The notes: generated by a model from the sequence alone, not told the origin. DNA of 64,000 bases from a bacterium (GCA_965240335.1 CBDEKM010000018.1:73417-137416), one strand, 5' to 3'; counted from the first letter of the stretch, positions 3,961-47,355 are shown. Translations and numbers: made by a program.

Positions 3961-4082
3961 TGCCCAAACCTCCAAGCCTGGGTTACTCGGGACGAGAGGC
4001 ATGCGGAACGGGGCGAAAATAGTAAAGCGGTCGTGCACCCACCCTCGAATCTACTCGTATCGGGGCATCCGTACCGCCGGCT

Positions 4083-4185
4083 CCGGCCAGGCGCTCCTGC
4101 GGCACACGATTATGGCGCTTACCGCTGCTACCTTCCGGTCCTGACGGGGTTGGGCGTTTTCACGTTGCGCAGGACCTGACTTTCA
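4083..4185 (-). ncRNA. ffs: signal recognition particle RNA, small (4.5S) type
   Basis: Minus strand reads ...GTCAGGTCCTGCGCAACGTGAAAACGCCCAACCCCGTCAGGACCGGAAGGTAGCAGCGGTAAGCGCCATAATCGTGTGCCGCAGGAGCGCCTGGCC. It matches the E. coli 4.5S domain IV consensus (CGCAACG...GGUCAGGUCCGGAAGGAAGCAGCC) including the GGAA tetraloop. 5'/3' arms are complementary. Located immediately upstream of dnaX as in many bacteria. Ends approximate (+/-10 nt). Confidence 0.7.
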
Positions 4186-4367
4186 ATACCGGATGTAACA
4201 CATACCGGCGACGCAAGTGCGATCCTTGGGATGGGAATTCGACCCCGCTGTAGCGGGTTGCGGGTTACAGGGCACCGCTAACTCCCCATCTAGCACGACC
4301 GTAATCGTTCCAAGCCTGTAATACGGGATGCAGGGAACGCTCGCTTCGTCGTTACCGGCATCCCGAG

Positions 4368-4440
4368 TGGAGCAGAGCGGAATCGAACCGCCGACCTCCA
4401 GATTGCGATTCTGGCGCTCTCCCAACTGAGCTACTGCCCC
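4368..4440 (-). tRNA. tRNA-Ala (anticodon CGC)
   Basis: Minus strand GGGGCAGTAGCTCAGTTGGGAGAGCGCCAGAATCGCAATCTGGAGGTCGGCGGTTCGATTCCGCTCTGCTCCA folds as a cloverleaf; anticodon loop AUCGCAA; G3:U70 Ala identity pair present; CCA not encoded. Confidence 0.85.
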
Positions 4441-4509
4441 AAAGTTTCCGTGGAACGAGGCGGGTTAACCGTCCTCTTCGTTCCGGGTCCGGGTTCCCCC
4501 GGTATTCAA

Positions 4510-4595
4510 CGGAGAGGGTGGGATTCGAACCCACGGTCCACATGGTGAACACACGCTCTCCAGGCGTGCCGATTCGACCGCTCTCGCACCTCTCC
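4510..4595 (-). tRNA. tRNA-Ser (anticodon GGA)
   Basis: Minus strand GGAGAGGTGCGAGAGCGGTCGAATCGGCACGCCTGGAGAGCGTGTG...GTGGGTTCGAATCCCACCCTCTCCG; long variable arm (class II); anticodon loop CUGGAGA. Confidence 0.85.
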
Positions 4596-4667
4596 CAGGT
4601 CCGTATCTGTGGTCAATGCCCGCGTCCGATATCCTTCCCTCTGCATTCCGATCGACAGGCTGAAAAA

Positions 4668-4752
4668 CGGAGAGGGTGGGATTCGAACCCACGGTGCCCG
4701 AAGGCACAACGGTTTTCGAGACCGTCCGATTCAACCACTCTCGCACCTCTCC
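4668..4752 (-). tRNA. tRNA-Ser (anticodon CGA)
   Basis: Minus strand GGAGAGGTGCGAGAGTGGTTGAATCGGACGGTCTCGAAAACCGTTGTGCCTTCGGGCACCGTGGGTTCGAATCCCACCCTCTCCG; class II; anticodon loop CUCGAAA. Confidence 0.85.
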
Positions 4753-5246
4753 GGTAACCTCGGTTCGATATCCGTACCGCCTGCCGCCCGTTTCGCCTTG
4801 AAGAAGTCCTTGAGCAGGTCGGAGCAGTTGTCCGCCAGGATCCCTCCTGTTACTTCCACCTGGTGATTCAACCGGGTGTCCCCCACGATATCACGCAAGG
4901 AACCACAGGCTCCGGTCTTGGGATCCACCGCCCCGTAAATCAGGCTCCGCATCCGGGCCAGCACGATCGCTCCGGCGCACATCGCGCAGGGTTCCAGCGT
5001 AACGTAGAGCGCGGCTCCCGTCAGTCGTTCATATCCCAGGGTTGTGCACGCCTCGCGGATCGCCAGCATTTCGGCGTGTGCGGTGGGGTCGCGCAACCGC
5101 TCAACACGATTCTGGCCCCGGCCAATGACCATCCCTTCGTGAACGATCACGGCCCCGACGGGCACGTCACCTTCGGCCGCCGCCGACCTGGCTTCTTCGA
5201 GTGCCAGACGCAGCCATTTTTCTTGTTCGCCGTCGTTACTCGTCAT
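4731..5246 (-). CDS. tadA: tRNA-specific adenosine(34) deaminase
   Basis: ORF 4731..5294; first ATG at 5246 gives MTSNDGEQEKWLRLALEEA.... CDA zinc motifs HAE (HAEMLAIREA) and PCxxC (LEPCAMCAGAI). 3' end overlaps tRNA-Ser(CGA) by ~22 nt. Confidence 0.85.
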   Translation of the reverse strand: MTSNDGEQEKWLRLALEEARSAAAEGDVPVGAVIVHEGMVIGRGQNRVERLRDPTAHAEMLAIREACTTLGYERLTGAALYVTLEPCAMCAGAIVLARMRSLIYGAVDPKTGACGSLRDIVGDTRLNHQVEVTGGILADNCSDLLKDFFKAKRAAGGTDIEPRLPERCESG

Positions 5247-5267
5247 GGCATTACGTCTCACGAAATA

Positions 5268-5341
5268 TACGCCCGGAGGGAGTCGAACCCACAACCTCCT
5301 GATCCGTAGTCAGGTGCTCTATCCAATTGAGCTACAGGCGC
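5268..5341 (-). tRNA. tRNA-Arg (anticodon ACG)
   Basis: Minus strand GCGCCTGTAGCTCAATTGGATAGAGCACCTGACTACGGATCAGGAGGTTGTGGGTTCGACTCCCTCCGGGCGTA; anticodon loop CUACGGA; D-arm and anticodon arm canonical; one U:U mismatch in the T-stem and G:U pairs in the acceptor stem; ends +/-2 nt. Confidence 0.75.
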
Positions 5342-23757: not shown

Positions 23758-23831
23758 TAGCGGCGCAGGGATTCGAACCCCGGACACTCGGATTATGATT
23801 CCGATGCTCTGACCAACTGAGCTACGCCGCC
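23758..23831 (-). tRNA. tRNA with CAU anticodon, elongator type (Met, or Ile2 if lysidinylated)
   Basis: Minus strand GGCGGCGTAGCTCAGTTGGTCAGAGCATCGGAATCATAATCCGAGTGTCCGGGGTTCGAATCCCTGCGCCGCTA; anticodon loop AUCAUAA. Not an initiator (no 3 G:C in the anticodon stem; the 1:72 pair is G:U, not a C:A mismatch). Immediately upstream of tilS. Confidence 0.8.
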
Positions 23832-28979: not shown

Positions 28980-30681
28980 ATGCCCAGTACCCGATTCGAT
29001 CTCTCGGACCTGACCCCCGGTGTCGTCGTCATCCTGGGCGTTCTCGTCCTGTTCTTCGGCCTCTTCCTGTTCTATCCGCTCCTGCACGTCCTGTTGAACG
29101 CCTTCTACCTGGACGAACAGTTTTCCATGGAGTTCTTCGGGCTGATGCTGCAGAGCCCGGTTCAGCAGCGCGCCCTGATGAACAGTTTCGAACTTGGCAT
29201 CGTCACGACCGCCCTGACGACGATCATCAGTCTGCCCATGGCGGTCGCCCTCGTGCGGTACGATTTCATCGGGAAGGGCCTGCTGGGGGGACTCGCGCTG
29301 GTACCGATGATCATGCCCCCCTTCGTCGGCGCCATCGGGATGAAGCAGATGTTCGCCCGGTTCGGTTCGATCAACCTTTTCCTGCTCGAATCCGGCGTCA
29401 TCGACGCGCCCATCGACTGGTTCGGCGGCGGCGGATTCTGGGGCGTGGTGATCCTCGAGGCCCTTCACCTGTACCCCATCATGTACCTGAACATCGCCGC
29501 GGGGCTGGCCAACGTGGACCCGAGCCTGGAGGAGTCGGCCCGAAATGTGGGCGCCGGGGGTTTCCGCCTTTTTCGCACGATCACGTTCCCGCTGATGCTG
29601 CCCGGATACTTCGCAGGTGCTATCATCGTGTTCATCTGGGCGTTCACGGACCTGGGCACGCCCCTGATCTTCGAGTTCCGCGAGGTCGTGGCGGTCCAGA
29701 TCTTCAACATGTCCACGGACGTCCACGCGAATCCTATGGGTTACGCCCTGGTCGTCTTCGTGGTCCTGGTCACCCTGGCCCTGTTTTACCTCTCCAAGAA
29801 GTTCTTCGGCGGCCGCCACTACGAGATGGTTGCCCGCGGCCACGTGATGTCCGCCTCCAGACCTGCGACCTCTCTCGAGACCGTCCTGATCTGGGGCATG
29901 CTTCTGTCCATCACCGGCATCGCGCTGATCCCTCACCTCAGCGTGGTCCTTACCTCCATCACCGAACGCTGGTTCATGACCGTGCTGCCCTCCGACTATA
30001 CCACGGCCTATTACGGGCAGATCTTCGAACACGACCTGACCCTGCTTTCCATCAAGAACAGCCTGTGGTTGAGCGTGATGAGCACCATGATCGATATCGT
30101 CATCGGCATCACCATCGCCTACCTGCTGACCAGGCGGCGCTTTCCGTTTCGGGACGCGCTCGACGCCGTGGCCATGCTTCCCCTGGCACTCCCGGGTCTG
30201 GTACTCGCCTTCGGTTACATCTCCGGATTCTCGGGTACCGTCCTGGACGTCCGTATTTCCCCCGTGCCCCTGCTGATCATCGCCTACGCCGTGCGCCGGC
30301 CTGCCTTACATGGTTCGCGCGGCCTACGCCGGTTTCCAGCAGATGAGCGTCACACTGGAAGAAGCATCCATGAACATGGGCGCCGGTCCCCTCCGGACGC
30401 TCTGGAAAATCACCATGCCGCTCATCATCGCCAACGTGGCCGCGGGCGCCATTCTCTGCTTCTCTTTTGCCATGCTCGAAGTGAGCGACAGCCTCATCCT
30501 GGCCATCAAGGAACAGTACTATCCCATTACCAAGGCCATTTACAGCCTGATGGGCCGTATAACCGACGGACCCTACATGGCGAGCGCCATGGGCATGCTG
30601 GGCATGATCCTGTTGGCATGCAGTTTGCTCTTTACAGGTAAAGTACTGGGTAAGAGAATGGGCCAACTGTTCAAGGTGTAG
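28980..30681 (+). CDS. iron(III)-type ABC transporter permease, two-domain (FbpB/AfuB-like), interrupted by a +1 frameshift near 30297 (possible pseudogene or sequencing error)
   Basis: ORF 28980..30641 encodes a credible permease up to ...PLLIIAYAVRR and then nonsense. ORF 30310..30681 in another frame continues with MVRAAYAGFQQMSVTLEEASMNMGAGPLRTLWKITMPLI..., the conserved C-terminal half. Removing one C in 'cggcctgcc' (~30294-30300) restores ...AVRRLPYMVRAAYAGF... Confidence 0.6.
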
Positions 30682-31628: not shown

Positions 31629-31768
31629 TTGCGGCTGCAACCGGTGTCATGGCCCACCGGATTCGTGTATCGAAGAAATTGGCAAAAGTCTTGTGTTTTC
31701 TTATCTTTAGGTGAATATTAATCATCAACATTTGTATAACATAACCTCCCCCCAAGGGATCCTGTTCG

Positions 31769-33331
31769 ATGTTCGATCTGGTCAACCTGATCAACCTGCT
31801 TGATATATTCATCATAGCGGCCCTGATCTACAGCCTCTACATGTGGCTGAAGGGTACCCGGGCGTATCATATCCTGATCGGCCTGGGCATCCTGGGCATC
31901 CTGTACAGCATTGCAAGCTGGAGCGGGCTGCTACTGACCAGCCAGATCCTGCAGTACCTCCTCGGTGTAACCCTCCTGCTGATCATCGTGGTCTTCCAGC
32001 CCGAAATACGACAACTGCTGGAAAAAGTCAGTCCCCTGGTCATATTCAGGATGCAAGGCAGCCCCATCTCCCGGCGCATACTGAAGGAGATTACCGAGGC
32101 CTGCTTCGAACTGTCGGAAAAACGCATCGGCGGCCTGCTGGTCTTCCCCCGGGCGGCCGGGGTCACGGGGGCCGTTCAGCATGGTGTCAAACTCGACAGT
32201 CTCGTGAGCCAGGAACTGATCGTCAGTATCTTCCATCCCTCGTCTCCGATACACGACGGCGCCATTATCGTGGAGAAGGACCGCGTGGTCGAAGCCGCCA
32301 CGTATCTTCCGCTTTCGACCCGCGAGCATCTGCCGCCCCGGTACGGCACGCGGCACCGGGCGGCGCTCGGCGTGTCGGAACTCGGCGATACGTTCTGCGT
32401 CGTGGTTTCCGAGGAAAGCGGCGAAGTTTCCATAGCGTCATACGGGGACATCTCGGCCATGGCAGACCGGGAGAAACTGTGGCAGGCGTTAGAGAAATCC
32501 CTGGTGCCTATCGAGATCCCCCGAAGCAGGCTGTCGCTCCGGGAAGCAATGGGCAAGATCGCCGCACTCTGGCCGGGATACCGGTTCAACCGGAGTAACC
32601 TGACCCCCAAACTGGCATCCATCGCGGTATCCTGTCTGCTCTGGTTCACGCTGATCGGACAGCAACGGTCCGAAATCGCCGTTACCGCCGCTTTGGAGTT
32701 CCAGAACATCCCGACTAATATCGAGTTGATCAGCAATTCGACCAGCGAGGTGATCGTCCGGGTGCGGGGACCCCAGGGGAGTATTTCGACGCTGACCGCG
32801 GACCAGGTGCGCGTTATGGTAGACCTGGACGATATCGAGCCAGGAACCCATACCATGCCGCTCACGGAGGCGAACGTGGAGTTGCCATTCGGCGTGGAAG
32901 CCACCTCGATCGATCCCAGAAGTCTGACCATAAAGTCTGACCGTATCGTAAACAGGCGGATAATGATCGATTACGATCTGACCGGGCAACTTCCCGATGG
33001 ACTGGAACTCGCACGGGATGTCATGGTAGAGCCGCCCTCGGTGCCGATCACGGGCCGGGAAATGGAATTGGACCAGATCGTGCGGATCGTGACGTCGCCT
33101 TCGATCGACCTTTCCGAGATTACGGCCAGCCAGATCTTCGACTGCCGGTTGACAATCTTACCGCAAAACCTGACGTATTCCTCTTTCACCATCGAGGACC
33201 GCGAGGTCAGGGTCCATATCGATCTGCAGCCAGTCGGCGATGGTCAATCGGTTTCGGGAGAAACCGGTGGGCTGACCGAGGTAGTGTCTTCCCTGCAGGC
33301 CAGCCTGGACAACCGGCTGAATTCACCTTGA
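31769..33331 (+). CDS. cdaA: diadenylate cyclase CdaA fused to a CdaR/YbbR-like regulatory domain
   Basis: 520 aa. N-terminal 3 TM + DAC domain (DGAIIV, RHRAALGVSE, TGT-type motifs). A single continuous ORF then continues through a TM segment (LASIAVSCLLWFTLIG) into ~230 aa of YbbR-like repeats. Confidence 0.8.
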   Translation: MFDLVNLINLLDIFIIAALIYSLYMWLKGTRAYHILIGLGILGILYSIASWSGLLLTSQILQYLLGVTLLLIIVVFQPEIRQLLEKVSPLVIFRMQGSPISRRILKEITEACFELSEKRIGGLLVFPRAAGVTGAVQHGVKLDSLVSQELIVSIFHPSSPIHDGAIIVEKDRVVEAATYLPLSTREHLPPRYGTRHRAALGVSELGDTFCVVVSEESGEVSIASYGDISAMADREKLWQALEKSLVPIEIPRSRLSLREAMGKIAALWPGYRFNRSNLTPKLASIAVSCLLWFTLIGQQRSEIAVTAALEFQNIPTNIELISNSTSEVIVRVRGPQGSISTLTADQVRVMVDLDDIEPGTHTMPLTEANVELPFGVEATSIDPRSLTIKSDRIVNRRIMIDYDLTGQLPDGLELARDVMVEPPSVPITGREMELDQIVRIVTSPSIDLSEITASQIFDCRLTILPQNLTYSSFTIEDREVRVHIDLQPVGDGQSVSGETGGLTEVVSSLQASLDNRLNSP

Positions 33332-33365: not shown

Positions 33366-34400
33366 ATGAGCATCCCTTCGTCAATCTGGTCAAAGGCGGC
33401 GTGGGTGTCTTGCGCCCTGTTGCTTTCGACCGCTTATGTATCCGCGGACACGGGACCGTCCGGTAGACTTACCCCGGTGGATAGCCCTGTCAATGCTCCT
33501 GCCCCTGCGGTGGACGGGGATATCCCTGATCCGGTTTCCGGGAAAGCTCCGTCCGATAAGGTGGACGGGTCGCCGGCAAAGGCGGACGCAACATCCGCCA
33601 GGTCGAGCTGGCACAGCGCCGGTATCCGCGTACGCGCCCGTGCCGCCCTTGTGCTCGACATGCAGAAGGGCGAGGTCATCTACCAGAAGAATGCCACGTC
33701 GCTGTTCCCTGTCGCGAGCATCACGAAACTGATGACGGCCGTGACCTACATGGGGATGAATCCGGACCTGGATAAGCCCATGAGCATCACGCGGAAGGAC
33801 GTCTACCGGGCGAACTGGACAAAACTGAGATTCAGGGAGCGGGTCTCGGCCCGGGATCTGCTCTACGCTACGCTTGTCGCTTCGGACAACGCCGCAGCGC
33901 GCGCGCTGGTCCGGGCGTCGGGTCTGACGATAGAAGCGTTCGTGGATCGCATGAATGAAACGGCGGCTTCGCTCGGCCTGGCGAACTCGCGATTTACCGA
34001 ACCCACCGGACTGGATTCAGGCAACATATCCACGGCGGTGGACTGTATAGCCCTTCTGTGGACCGCGCTCCAGGACGAATTGCTATCGGAAATCCTGCTG
34101 GCGAAGGAGTACAAGTTCGGAACGAACCGCCGCGTGCATACCATCAGGACTACCAACCGGCTGGTACGCGATACGACGACTCAAAGCCAGTGGGAGTCCG
34201 TTGGCAGCAAGACCGGATACATCCGAAGGGCCGGATACTGTCTCGTCCTGCGTGCCCTCGGCAATGATGGCGACGATATCTACGCAGTCATACTCGGAGG
34301 TCCGACGAGTAGAACCAGGTTCACGGACATGCGCCGCTTGCTGGACTGGAGCGTAAATACCGGCCGGAACGTCGGACAGCCGGCCGGAGTTGACGGCTGA
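33366..34400 (+). CDS. D-alanyl-D-alanine carboxypeptidase (S11, PBP5/DacA-like)
   Basis: 344 aa; signal peptide; SxxK (SITKLMT), SDN (ASDNAAA), KTG (SKTGYI). Confidence 0.85.
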   Translation: MSIPSSIWSKAAWVSCALLLSTAYVSADTGPSGRLTPVDSPVNAPAPAVDGDIPDPVSGKAPSDKVDGSPAKADATSARSSWHSAGIRVRARAALVLDMQKGEVIYQKNATSLFPVASITKLMTAVTYMGMNPDLDKPMSITRKDVYRANWTKLRFRERVSARDLLYATLVASDNAAARALVRASGLTIEAFVDRMNETAASLGLANSRFTEPTGLDSGNISTAVDCIALLWTALQDELLSEILLAKEYKFGTNRRVHTIRTTNRLVRDTTTQSQWESVGSKTGYIRRAGYCLVLRALGNDGDDIYAVILGGPTSRTRFTDMRRLLDWSVNTGRNVGQPAGVDG

Positions 34401-34474: not shown

Positions 34475-34642
34475 ATGTTGGCGACGATTGGTTTCAGCGT
34501 GATCGGCACGATAATCCTGGGTCTTGTTGCGATCGGCCTGGTCTATCTCATGGCCCTCACAGGGGGCGGCCAGCGCGTACGTTCCCCGGGGCGACGCTCA
34601 ACAGGCAGACCGCGGCCCGCAGGGGCCGGTGGTCGCAGGTAA
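34475..34642 (+). CDS. small (55 aa) membrane protein, hypothetical
   Basis: Not in the ORF track (<60 aa). ATG 34475 preceded by AAGGAG 6 nt upstream; MLATIGFSVIGTIILGLVAIGLVYLMALTGGGQRVRSPGRRSTGRPRPAGAGGRR; one TM helix plus Arg-rich tail; ends 16 nt before the DUF4159 gene. Confidence 0.4.
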   Translation: MLATIGFSVIGTIILGLVAIGLVYLMALTGGGQRVRSPGRRSTGRPRPAGAGGRR

Positions 34643-34658: not shown

Positions 34659-35348
34659 ATGACCTCGTTAAGCCGGTACGTGGCCGCCCTCGTGCTATGC
34701 GGTCTCGCTTCCGGGTGGGCGCCCCACGCAGGGCGCGCAGACTATAGCGAAAACGGCAGGTTGACCATTGCGCGGATGAAGTATGACGGCGGGGGCGACT
34801 GGTACAATGACCCCGAAGCGATTCCCAACCTCGCACGGGAACTGCAACTGCGTGCGGGCATCGAGACAAATCTGGATCAGCGTGTCGTTACCCTGACAGA
34901 TGACCTGCTGTTTTCTTCACCGGTCCTTTTCATGACCGGTCACGGCGAGGTGAGGTGGACCGAATCGGAAGTCAGGAACCTGCGTACCTACCTGATGCGC
35001 GGCGGTTTCCTTTATGCCGATGACGATTATGGCATGGACAAGGCCTTTCGCAGGGAAATGAAACGGGTCTTTCCGGACAAGGATTTTGTCGAACTACCGT
35101 TCACCCACCCGATCTACCACATCATCTACGATTTACCGGCTGGCCCACCCAAACATCATGAGCACGACGGCAAGCCGCCCCAGGGATTCGGACTCTTCCA
35201 CGATGGGCGACTGGTGGTGTATTATACTTACGAAAGCAATGTCAGCGATGGCTGGGCCGACGAGAAGACCCATAACGATCCACCGGCGAAACGAGACACC
35301 GCCTTTAGAATGGGAATCAACATCATCGCTTACGCGCTCTACCGTTGA
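34659..35348 (+). CDS. DUF4159 domain protein
   Basis: ORF 34524; ATG 34659 (MTSLSRYVAALVLCGLASGW...) with GGAG upstream; signal/TM N-terminus then DUF4159-like region (…FMTGHGEVRWTESEVRNLRTYLMRGGFLYADD…). Confidence 0.7.
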   Translation: MTSLSRYVAALVLCGLASGWAPHAGRADYSENGRLTIARMKYDGGGDWYNDPEAIPNLARELQLRAGIETNLDQRVVTLTDDLLFSSPVLFMTGHGEVRWTESEVRNLRTYLMRGGFLYADDDYGMDKAFRREMKRVFPDKDFVELPFTHPIYHIIYDLPAGPPKHHEHDGKPPQGFGLFHDGRLVVYYTYESNVSDGWADEKTHNDPPAKRDTAFRMGINIIAYALYR

Positions 35349-47280: not shown

Positions 47281-47355
47281 TCGGGGTGGGGGGATTTGAA
47301 CCCCCGACCCCCTGCTCCCAAAGCAGGTGCGCTGACCGGACTGCGCTACACCCCG
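47281..47355 (-). tRNA. tRNA-Pro (anticodon UGG)
   Basis: Minus strand CGGGGTGTAGCGCAGTCCGGTCAGCGCACCTGCTTTGGGAGCAGGGGGTCGGGGGTTCAAATCCCCCCACCCCGA; anticodon loop UUUGGGA. Confidence 0.85.

Follow-up and report, generated by a model that had tools for sequence, protein, structure and literature searches.

A natural fusion of the diadenylate cyclase CdaA with its regulator CdaR in a diderm bacterium

The 64-kb stretch of bacterial DNA analysed here (64,000 nucleotides; hereinafter, the window) encodes what is very probably a membrane-bound diadenylate cyclase of the CdaA type with a covalently attached C-terminal CdaR, the product of a genuine, expressed gene. The initial annotation had described a single uninterrupted 520-aa ORF in which three transmembrane (TM) helices and a DAC domain with the DGA and RHR motifs are followed by an additional TM segment and YbbR repeats, and this layout is borne out in all its parts. 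Both the ORF listing and the raw sequence show one ATG-to-TGA frame without internal stops, and stop codons are present in both alternative frames across positions 32500-32700. The gene and the parts of its product, predicted by sequence comparison, hydropathy and AlphaFold2 (AF2) modelling, are as follows.

31769..33331, plus strand: fused cdaA-cdaR gene, 520 aa plus stop, with CdaA_N, DAC and YbbR domains; above the TIGR00159 cut-off; collinear orthologs at 81-90% identity
31781..32008, plus strand: N-terminal membrane domain of the CdaA part, comprising three TM helices, residues 5-80 (Pfam PF19293, hydropathy, AF2)
32072..32503, plus strand: DAC (diadenylate cyclase) catalytic domain, predicted to be cytoplasmic, residues 102-245 (Pfam, PDB sequence matches, Foldseek)
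32255-32263, plus strand: DGA motif, within the DAC domain
32351-32359, plus strand: RHR motif, within the DAC domain
32504..32590, plus strand: cytoplasmic linker rich in K/R, residues 246-274 (K/R count; low pLDDT; short helix predicted at 257-266)
32591..32659, plus strand: fourth TM helix (TM4), residues 275-297, the equivalent of the N-terminal membrane anchor of standalone CdaR (hydropathy, AF2, alignment)
32666..32953, plus strand: periplasmic YbbR domain 1, residues 300-395 (profile matches to 2l3u, 5hqh (Lmo2119), 2kq1 and 4qdy; pLDDT 83-89)
32966..33232, plus strand: periplasmic YbbR domain 2, residues 400-488 (best stretch of the Pfam YbbR match at 401-469; profile match to 2kxy; pLDDT 85-89)
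33233..33328, plus strand: clade-specific C-terminal tail, residues 489-520, of low confidence (pLDDT 38-57; predicted helix 503-517)

The N-terminal half of the fused protein is a predicted CdaA-type cyclase. The Pfam profiles CdaA_N (residues 5-80, 27.1 bits against a cut-off of 23.8) and DAC (residues 110-227, E 8.5e-36) both match, and the score with TIGR00159, the NCBIfam equivalog model for CdaA, exceeds the cut-off by a small margin (194.6 bits against 188.8). The residues D163-G164-A165 and R195-H196-R197 are invariant in an alignment of 29 sequences. Among the PDB sequences, the DAC domain matches CdaA/DacA at E-values of 1e-39 to 1e-27, with 33-41% identity, and Foldseek searches with the DAC part of the AF2 model retrieve the solved structures of CdaA, DacA and DacM (E ~1e-15 to 2e-17; TM score 0.85-0.93, normalised to the target). 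There is no second DAC gene and no standalone cdaR gene within the 64-kb window.

The identification of the C-terminal half as CdaR, also put forward in the initial annotation, is corroborated by comparisons both with solved structures and with standalone genes. The Pfam YbbR profile (PF07949) matches this half in two stretches, with 47 bits against a cut-off of 22.3, and a profile built from it finds the solved YbbR domains 4qdy, 2l3u, 5hqh (Listeria Lmo2119) and 2kq1 at E-values from 6.6e-7 to 9e-4, with an additional profile match, to 2kxy, that covers the second YbbR domain. In the loci where cyclase and regulator are split, an ORF check shows that cdaA, ~260-295 aa long, either ends with a stop ahead of cdaR or overlaps it slightly, cdaR being 215-335 aa long in Gram-negative phyla and 305-500 aa long in Firmicutes. 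The C-terminal half of the fused protein aligns end to end with these cdaR genes located directly downstream of cdaA (E 1e-17 to 3e-38, profile positions 2-180; the best match is a 220-aa CdaR from Bryobacterales), and TM4 aligns with their N-terminus. Judging by this alignment, the fusion consists of cdaA and a short cdaR, linked in the order in which the separate genes lie. The number of YbbR domains is two, not three or four, and the CdaR part is not a separate polypeptide, the ORF being continuous. Fragments of fused relatives have been named 'CdaR family protein' by NCBI.

Hydropathy analysis delineates four TM segments (2-20, 35-53, 58-76 and 278-296) that closely correspond to helices in the AF2 model (7-27, 31-51, 55-75 and 275-297). 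This model, built on the 29-sequence alignment (mean pLDDT 77), consists of a confident DAC domain (102-245), a floppy linker and two confident beta-rich domains (300-395 and 400-488); with a pTM of 0.39, the arrangement of the domains relative to each other is unreliable. Eight Lys/Arg residues are located in the ~50 residues ahead of TM4 (240-288) and none in the 24 residues that follow it, and because of this charge pattern, the DAC domain is predicted to lie in the cytoplasm and the YbbR domains in the periplasm, in agreement with the earlier proposal that the two parts reside on opposite sides of the membrane. Since CdaA ends and CdaR begins in the cytoplasm, joining the two proteins would require no change of topology. 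Within TM4, W292 is invariant in the alignment. The linker is the least conserved stretch of the fused protein, and its length varies between clades, yet it is always in frame; the C-terminal tail is restricted to a Gemmatimonadota-like clade.

Relatives at 81-90% identity to the fused protein form ~30 clusters, with proteins of 517-522 aa each, all of them full length and collinear with it; the assemblies behind these clusters are independent of one another and were drawn from ENA, NCBI, JGI and Logan, in some cases with contigs of 3.7-4.2 Mb. Comparison with the ortholog from the locus L081 shows 50, 22 and 159 differences at the first, second and third codon positions, respectively, over the entire gene, 5, 5 and 15 differences across the junction (residues 246-300), and 18, 8 and 71 in the YbbR part. 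The third-position bias holds throughout, and therefore, a single frame is under purifying selection in both halves. These observations bear on the trivial explanation of the fusion, namely, that ordinary cdaA and cdaR genes look like one because of a sequencing or assembly error, either the loss of a stop codon or an indel. Such an error has some plausibility inasmuch as the cdaA and cdaR genes of many split loci share a reading frame and are kept apart by no more than a stop, so that a single mistake could mimic a fusion, and a one-base insertion at ~30298, 1.5 kb upstream, does break an ABC permease gene in the same window relative to a 566-aa ortholog. We nevertheless assign a negligible probability to this explanation: dozens of independently assembled relatives, from 90% down to ~30% identity, contain the same uninterrupted ORF, the junction is collinear with substitutions biased to the third position, and the cyclase half falls into a clade that consists of fused genes only. 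The check for a hidden frameshift or stop that the initial annotation called for thus revealed none, and an artefact is rejected on the strength of the collinear orthologs in many assemblies and the pattern of substitutions across the junction.

The initial annotation further considered the fused layout to be unlike that of the characterised systems, and this is the case for the fusion as such, but the implied rarity does not hold. We exhaustively searched 1.84 billion representatives at 50% identity and inspected the best 150 matches, ~130 of which align in one stretch from TM1 through TM4 into YbbR. The fused relatives, which belong mostly to Desulfobacterota and to MAGs with the labels Gemmatimonadota or Latescibacteria, come in two length classes, ~380-425 aa with one YbbR domain and ~470-515 aa with two. 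The fused architecture is already abundant in public databases, where it is annotated simply as CdaA: the databases hold hundreds of such proteins under the names 'diadenylate cyclase CdaA' or 'TIGR00159 family protein'. Galperin's 2023 'All DACs in a row' is said to distinguish 22 families of DAC proteins by architecture, and the CdaA-CdaR fusion is probably among them.

A scan of the GTDB reference genomes was run with the fused query and hence is biased to fused sequences, so that all counts derived from it are counts among the matches listed. Long tblastn matches overstate the spread of the fusion because adjacent cdaA and cdaR genes get joined, which makes an ORF check necessary; when this check was applied to the matches listed, a large share of the near-full-length loci turned out to be two genes, including all Firmicutes loci with a callable ORF. 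The true single-ORF fusions among these matches are mostly from Desulfobacterota (Geobacteraceae, Desulfobacterales, Syntrophobacteraceae and Desulfomonile), with one further locus each in Isosphaeraceae and Bryobacteraceae. The clade of the gene studied here includes MAGs labelled variously Gemmatimonadota, Latescibacteria or Zixibacteria; no close Gemmatimonadota genomes are among the GTDB matches listed.

This distribution can be set against a published precedent in which the two proteins are joined. According to a 2023 review, CdaA and CdaR are fused in some strains of streptococci (UniProt A5LQF8, E1M7C3 and V8IIN0), and AlphaFold models suggest a TM-TM contact between their CdaA and CdaR parts (PMC10243994). 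As in the protein described here, CdaA is followed by CdaR in a single polypeptide, and the TM-TM contact fits the mechanism proposed below. The streptococcal fusions, however, are strain-level events in species that normally have split genes, whereas here we are dealing with an old, diverse fused lineage; it is by description that the two are set apart. By analogy with these strains (PMC10243994), and given that the loss of a single stop codon suffices, the gene in the window might represent a recent, sporadic read-through fusion devoid of functional meaning. We consider this very unlikely, in view of a fused layout that is kept across several phyla at only 30-35% identity, of the invariant Trp in TM4 and of the purifying selection that affects both halves.

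To place the fused genes relative to the split ones, we built a neighbour-joining (NJ) tree of the cyclase half only, with the linker, TM4 and YbbR residues left out, from 61 fused and 39 split sequences. The fused cyclases and the split CdaA proteins fall on opposite sides of this tree with a bootstrap of 195/200, in a sample that is biased as indicated above. A tree of the highly divergent YbbR half, based on score-derived distances, does not recover the fused/split bipartition (0/100); in both halves, distances within the fused set are smaller than those between fused and split sequences. The fused cyclases are, probably, a large monophyletic subfamily, and a single origin of the fused genes, for which the support comes from the cyclase half only, is favoured but not proven. 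The competing scenario, in which the fusion arose on multiple independent occasions, or a fused gene was transferred between phyla, rather than being ancestral, draws on the failure of the YbbR half to unite the fused sequences, on the different linker lengths among clades and on the presence of fused genes in distant phyla whose relatives also carry split operons. The bootstrap-supported separation of the cyclase halves and the smaller distances within the fused set in both halves run counter to this scenario, which appears doubtful.

The fused gene is preceded by an AT-rich gap of 140 nt and followed on the same strand by a row of genes that is conserved in its clade.

31679..31707, plus strand: weak sigma-70-like promoter match, TTGGCA-17-TATCTT, 9/12 matches (consensus match only), within the AT-rich gap
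33366..34400, plus strand: low-molecular-weight PBP, Peptidase_S11 (PF00768, E 1e-40; SITK118, SDN173, KTG282)
34475..34642, plus strand: small conserved single-TM protein, 55 aa (tblastn identity of 87%, 62% and 53% to ORFs in L081, L083 and L084)
34659..35348, plus strand: DUF4159 protein (Pfam E 5.3e-64; start inferred from a 229-aa ortholog, the mechanical ORF starting at 34524)

The S11 peptidase gene starts after a gap of 34 nt, in which the scan found no terminator; overall, the promoter and terminator scan yielded weak consensus matches only, and no c-di-AMP (ydaO) riboswitch or other regulatory RNA was found near the fused gene in the window. The order of the fused gene, the S11 peptidase, a 55-62-aa TM protein and DUF4159 is kept in loci where the identity is 86%, 54% and 48%. 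In this clade, S11 is always the next gene (L081/L082, L083 and L084), and the DUF4159 protein occupies the same position in L081-L084. Given the short gap and the conserved order, the S11 gene is probably co-transcribed with the fused gene. In one MAG labelled Latescibacteria, the S11 gene is followed by an inserted class A PBP.

The S11 protein has a hydrophobic, signal-like N-terminus and intact SxxK, SxN and KTG motifs, and lacks the PBP5 C-terminal domain. Its best NCBIfam match, below the cut-off, is the model for the PbpG-type DD-endopeptidase, and no equivalog cut-off is reached. The initial annotation had a D,D-carboxypeptidase follow the cyclase gene in place of an adjacent glmM; the S11 peptidase and the absence of glmM are both confirmed, but in view of the missing PBP5 domain and of the profile scores, 'low-molecular-weight PBP (DD-carboxy/endopeptidase)' would be the safer label.

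Beyond this clade, the pairing with S11 was not found among the loci L001-L080, save for one match upstream of cdaA in a Clostridia locus. In four Geobacteraceae loci, a gene for a LysM-NlpC/P60 endopeptidase directly follows the fusion; a DUF2914 gene lies immediately ahead of the fused gene in eight loci from Desulfobacterales; and unrelated neighbours of other fused branches include, along with DUF2914, a GT2 glycosyltransferase and a GGDEF protein. Wall-hydrolase neighbours are recurrent in the fused family but not universal.

The connection with glmM was assessed with a GlmM profile derived from ten motif-bearing ORFs, all ten of which score above the TIGR01455 cut-off, and scans extended up to 8 kb on each side of the cyclase gene. 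A profile search detected no GlmM-family match in the 64-kb window. Among the matches listed, none of the 36 fused loci has a GlmM-family match within up to 8 kb on each side, compared with 24 of the 39 split loci that have one scoring above 300 bits. A motif-based count gives 0/25 for fused and 20/32 for split loci (Fisher p = 2e-7, ignoring phylogeny). In the fused subfamily, the cyclase gene is no longer linked to glmM, although the contrast with the split loci does not take phylogeny into account.

The closest characterised system is the CdaA (DacA)-CdaR (YbbR)-GlmM module of Bacillus subtilis, Listeria monocytogenes and Staphylococcus aureus. It shares with the fused protein three TM helices plus DAC, one TM helix plus an extracytoplasmic YbbR region, and the link to the cell envelope, but differs in that these are two proteins there and one polypeptide here, and in that glmM, present in the operon of the Firmicutes, is found here neither in the operon nor in the 64-kb window. 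The fused protein has two YbbR domains as opposed to four in the CdaR of B. subtilis (PMC10636490) and three to four in lactic acid bacteria (PMC10243994), and its host is a diderm in which the YbbR domains are located in the periplasm.

Among Gram-negative bacteria, split operons occur in Acidobacteriota, Nitrospirota, Bdellovibrionota, Desulfobulbia and others, with cdaA followed by cdaR, that is, in the same order as the domains of the fused protein; the CdaR proteins in these operons are 215-335 aa long, contain two to three YbbR domains and align with its C-terminal half. Unlike the fused genes, the two genes are separated by a stop or overlap by up to 40 nt (<=40 nt), glmM usually follows (24/39 loci), and the cyclase halves form a separate clade. 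A precedent for c-di-AMP control of the CdaR type in a diderm is the CdaR of Porphyromonas gingivalis (PGN_1486), which is encoded by a separate gene in a different locus; the P. gingivalis cdaR mutant shows cell-envelope defects and increased sensitivity to beta-lactams. In Leptospira and Borrelia, cdaA and cdaR are found without glmM, as adjacent but separate, unfused genes. Along with P. gingivalis, these spirochaetes set a precedent both for this type of control in diderms and for operons that lack glmM (PMC9259658, PMC12974146, PMC8316131).

These comparisons suggest a scheme for the working of the fused protein. The DAC domain, held in the cytoplasm by three TM helices, should condense two molecules of ATP into c-di-AMP. 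A basic linker of ~30 residues connects it to TM4, which corresponds to the membrane anchor of CdaR, and through TM4, to two periplasmic YbbR domains, so that the contact between CdaA and CdaR would be hard-wired at a 1:1 ratio. The YbbR ectodomain may sense some envelope signal and relay it via TM4 and the linker, whereby the head-to-head pairing of the DAC domains would be altered, with a change in the output of c-di-AMP; the co-expression with a DD-peptidase suggests that the sensed cue could concern peptidoglycan. In the split systems, the contact of CdaR with CdaA is made by the TM parts, and CdaR alters c-di-AMP levels (PMC8316131, PMC10243994). The direction of this effect differs between species, with stimulation in B. 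subtilis but inhibition in L. monocytogenes and P. gingivalis (PMC10636490, PMC9259658), and regulation in the fused protein could go either way.

The same architecture would also be compatible with an active cyclase whose YbbR ectodomain serves chiefly for scaffolding or localisation and not as an allosteric sensor; it would anchor the cyclase on peptidoglycan or on the hydrolase encoded alongside, for instance where the wall is being remodelled. The hydrolase genes that adjoin the fused gene in two branches (S11 and LysM-NlpC/P60) and the enrichment of CdaA and CdaR at the division site of Streptococcus pneumoniae (bioRxiv 10.64898/2026.09.06.749708) are in line with such a role, which we deem quite unlikely to be the main one, considering that other fused branches have unrelated neighbours and that, in the genetics of split systems, CdaR changes c-di-AMP levels (PMC9259658). 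The ectodomain could serve as a scaffold and as a sensor at the same time. Under the preferred reading of a covalently regulated cyclase, a broader, fairly improbable extension is that the fused cyclases represent a distinct, old signalling solution in which the cytoplasmic control by GlmM was dropped and the periplasmic YbbR domains read peptidoglycan remodelling directly; YbbR might then bind muropeptides or the co-transcribed hydrolase (S11 here, LysM-NlpC/P60 in Geobacteraceae). If that were true, the one-protein systems would provide a simple handle on the long-open question of what CdaR senses.

The findings at the level of the subfamily, namely, the separate clade, the uncoupling from glmM and the hydrolase neighbours, are a modest, if useful, addition that does not overturn the current understanding. 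By 'Rosetta-stone' logic, a conserved, natural fusion of CdaA with CdaR is evidence for joint action of the two proteins as a unit with a fixed stoichiometry, and this argument reaches diderm bacteria, where the c-di-AMP pathway is little studied. The fused protein is, moreover, a compact construct for biochemical work. A fused lineage that lacks a nearby glmM in this sample and is paired with hydrolases in two branches suggests that the connection between the cell wall and c-di-AMP may be wired in an alternative way in these bacteria.

A single alignment column cleanly divides the fused cyclases, in which CdaA and CdaR are encoded by one ORF, from the split ones. In the fused protein of the window, this column corresponds to the following site:

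31937-31939, codon of T57, in the turn between TM2 and TM3 (motif GLxLTS).

Threonine occupies the column in 98% of the fused sequences, whereas the most common residue in the split cyclases is leucine; TM4 might make contact with the protein at T57. The number of YbbR domains varies among the fused proteins, even within one genome. A Desulfobacterales MAG (JASFGH01, Bin_318) carries two paralogs (loci L010 and L020), one of 404 aa with a single YbbR domain and the other of 480 aa with two, that belong to separate subclades of the fused family, and both types are likewise present in Desulfobacula MAGs. Database annotation is inconsistent in the cluster of protein P0034, which includes fused cyclases and fragments of them: full-length members go by 'diadenylate cyclase CdaA' or 'TIGR00159 family protein', C-terminal fragments by 'CdaR family protein, partial' or 'YbbR domain-containing protein', and near-identical members bear three phylum labels (Gemmatimonadota, Latescibacteria and Zixibacteria).

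Elsewhere, the window contains several RNA genes and, on the upstream side of the fused gene, a disrupted transporter gene:

4031-5341 (-), bacterial large SRP RNA (162 bits) and an adjoining cluster of four tRNA genes
23758-23831 and 47281-47355 (-), two more tRNAs, elsewhere in the window
28980-30681 (+), ABC transporter permease gene (BPD_transp_1) with a one-base indel at about 30298

No c-di-AMP (ydaO) riboswitch was found across the whole 64-kb window. The indel is an additional G ('CGCCGGCC' in the window vs 'CGCC-GC' in the ortholog) that breaks the 566-aa permease into two frames, as tblastn matches query residues 1-440 in frame 1 (94% identity) but residues 441-566 in frame 2 (99% identity). 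This is either a true pseudogene or an assembly error.

In eight Desulfobacterales loci (L008, L019, L022, L023, L026, L028, L039 and L052), the gene directly upstream of the fused one encodes a DUF2914 protein of 135-167 aa, assigned with Pfam for the L022 copy and by blastp grouping with that copy for the rest. This gene ends where the fused cyclase gene starts or 0-7 nt inside it, which suggests that the DUF2914 protein is translationally coupled to the cyclase.

Downstream, the S11 peptidase and DUF4159 genes of the window flank a small conserved gene, and a relative carries an insertion next to it:

34475-34642 (+), single-TM protein of 55 aa (MLATIGFSVIGTIILGLVAIGLVYLMALTGGGQRVR...)
L084:3591-5975, class A PBP (Transgly and Transpeptidase domains), in a MAG labelled Latescibacteria

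The small ORF, missing from the mechanical ORF list and overlapped by an over-extended DUF4159 ORF (start 34524), keeps its position in three loci of the same clade (L081, L083 and L084; 53-87% identity). In L084, the inserted PBP gene separates the small TM ORF from the S11 peptidase, giving the cluster a stronger cell-wall character. In four Geobacteraceae loci (L002, L016, L017 and L038), a gene for a LysM-NlpC/P60 peptidoglycan endopeptidase, identified with Pfam in L002 and L016 and grouped with these by blastp in L017 and L038, lies 108-128 nt beyond the fused gene on its downstream side. The fused family is here paired with a wall hydrolase for a second time, and the branch concerned is not the one that has the S11 pairing.
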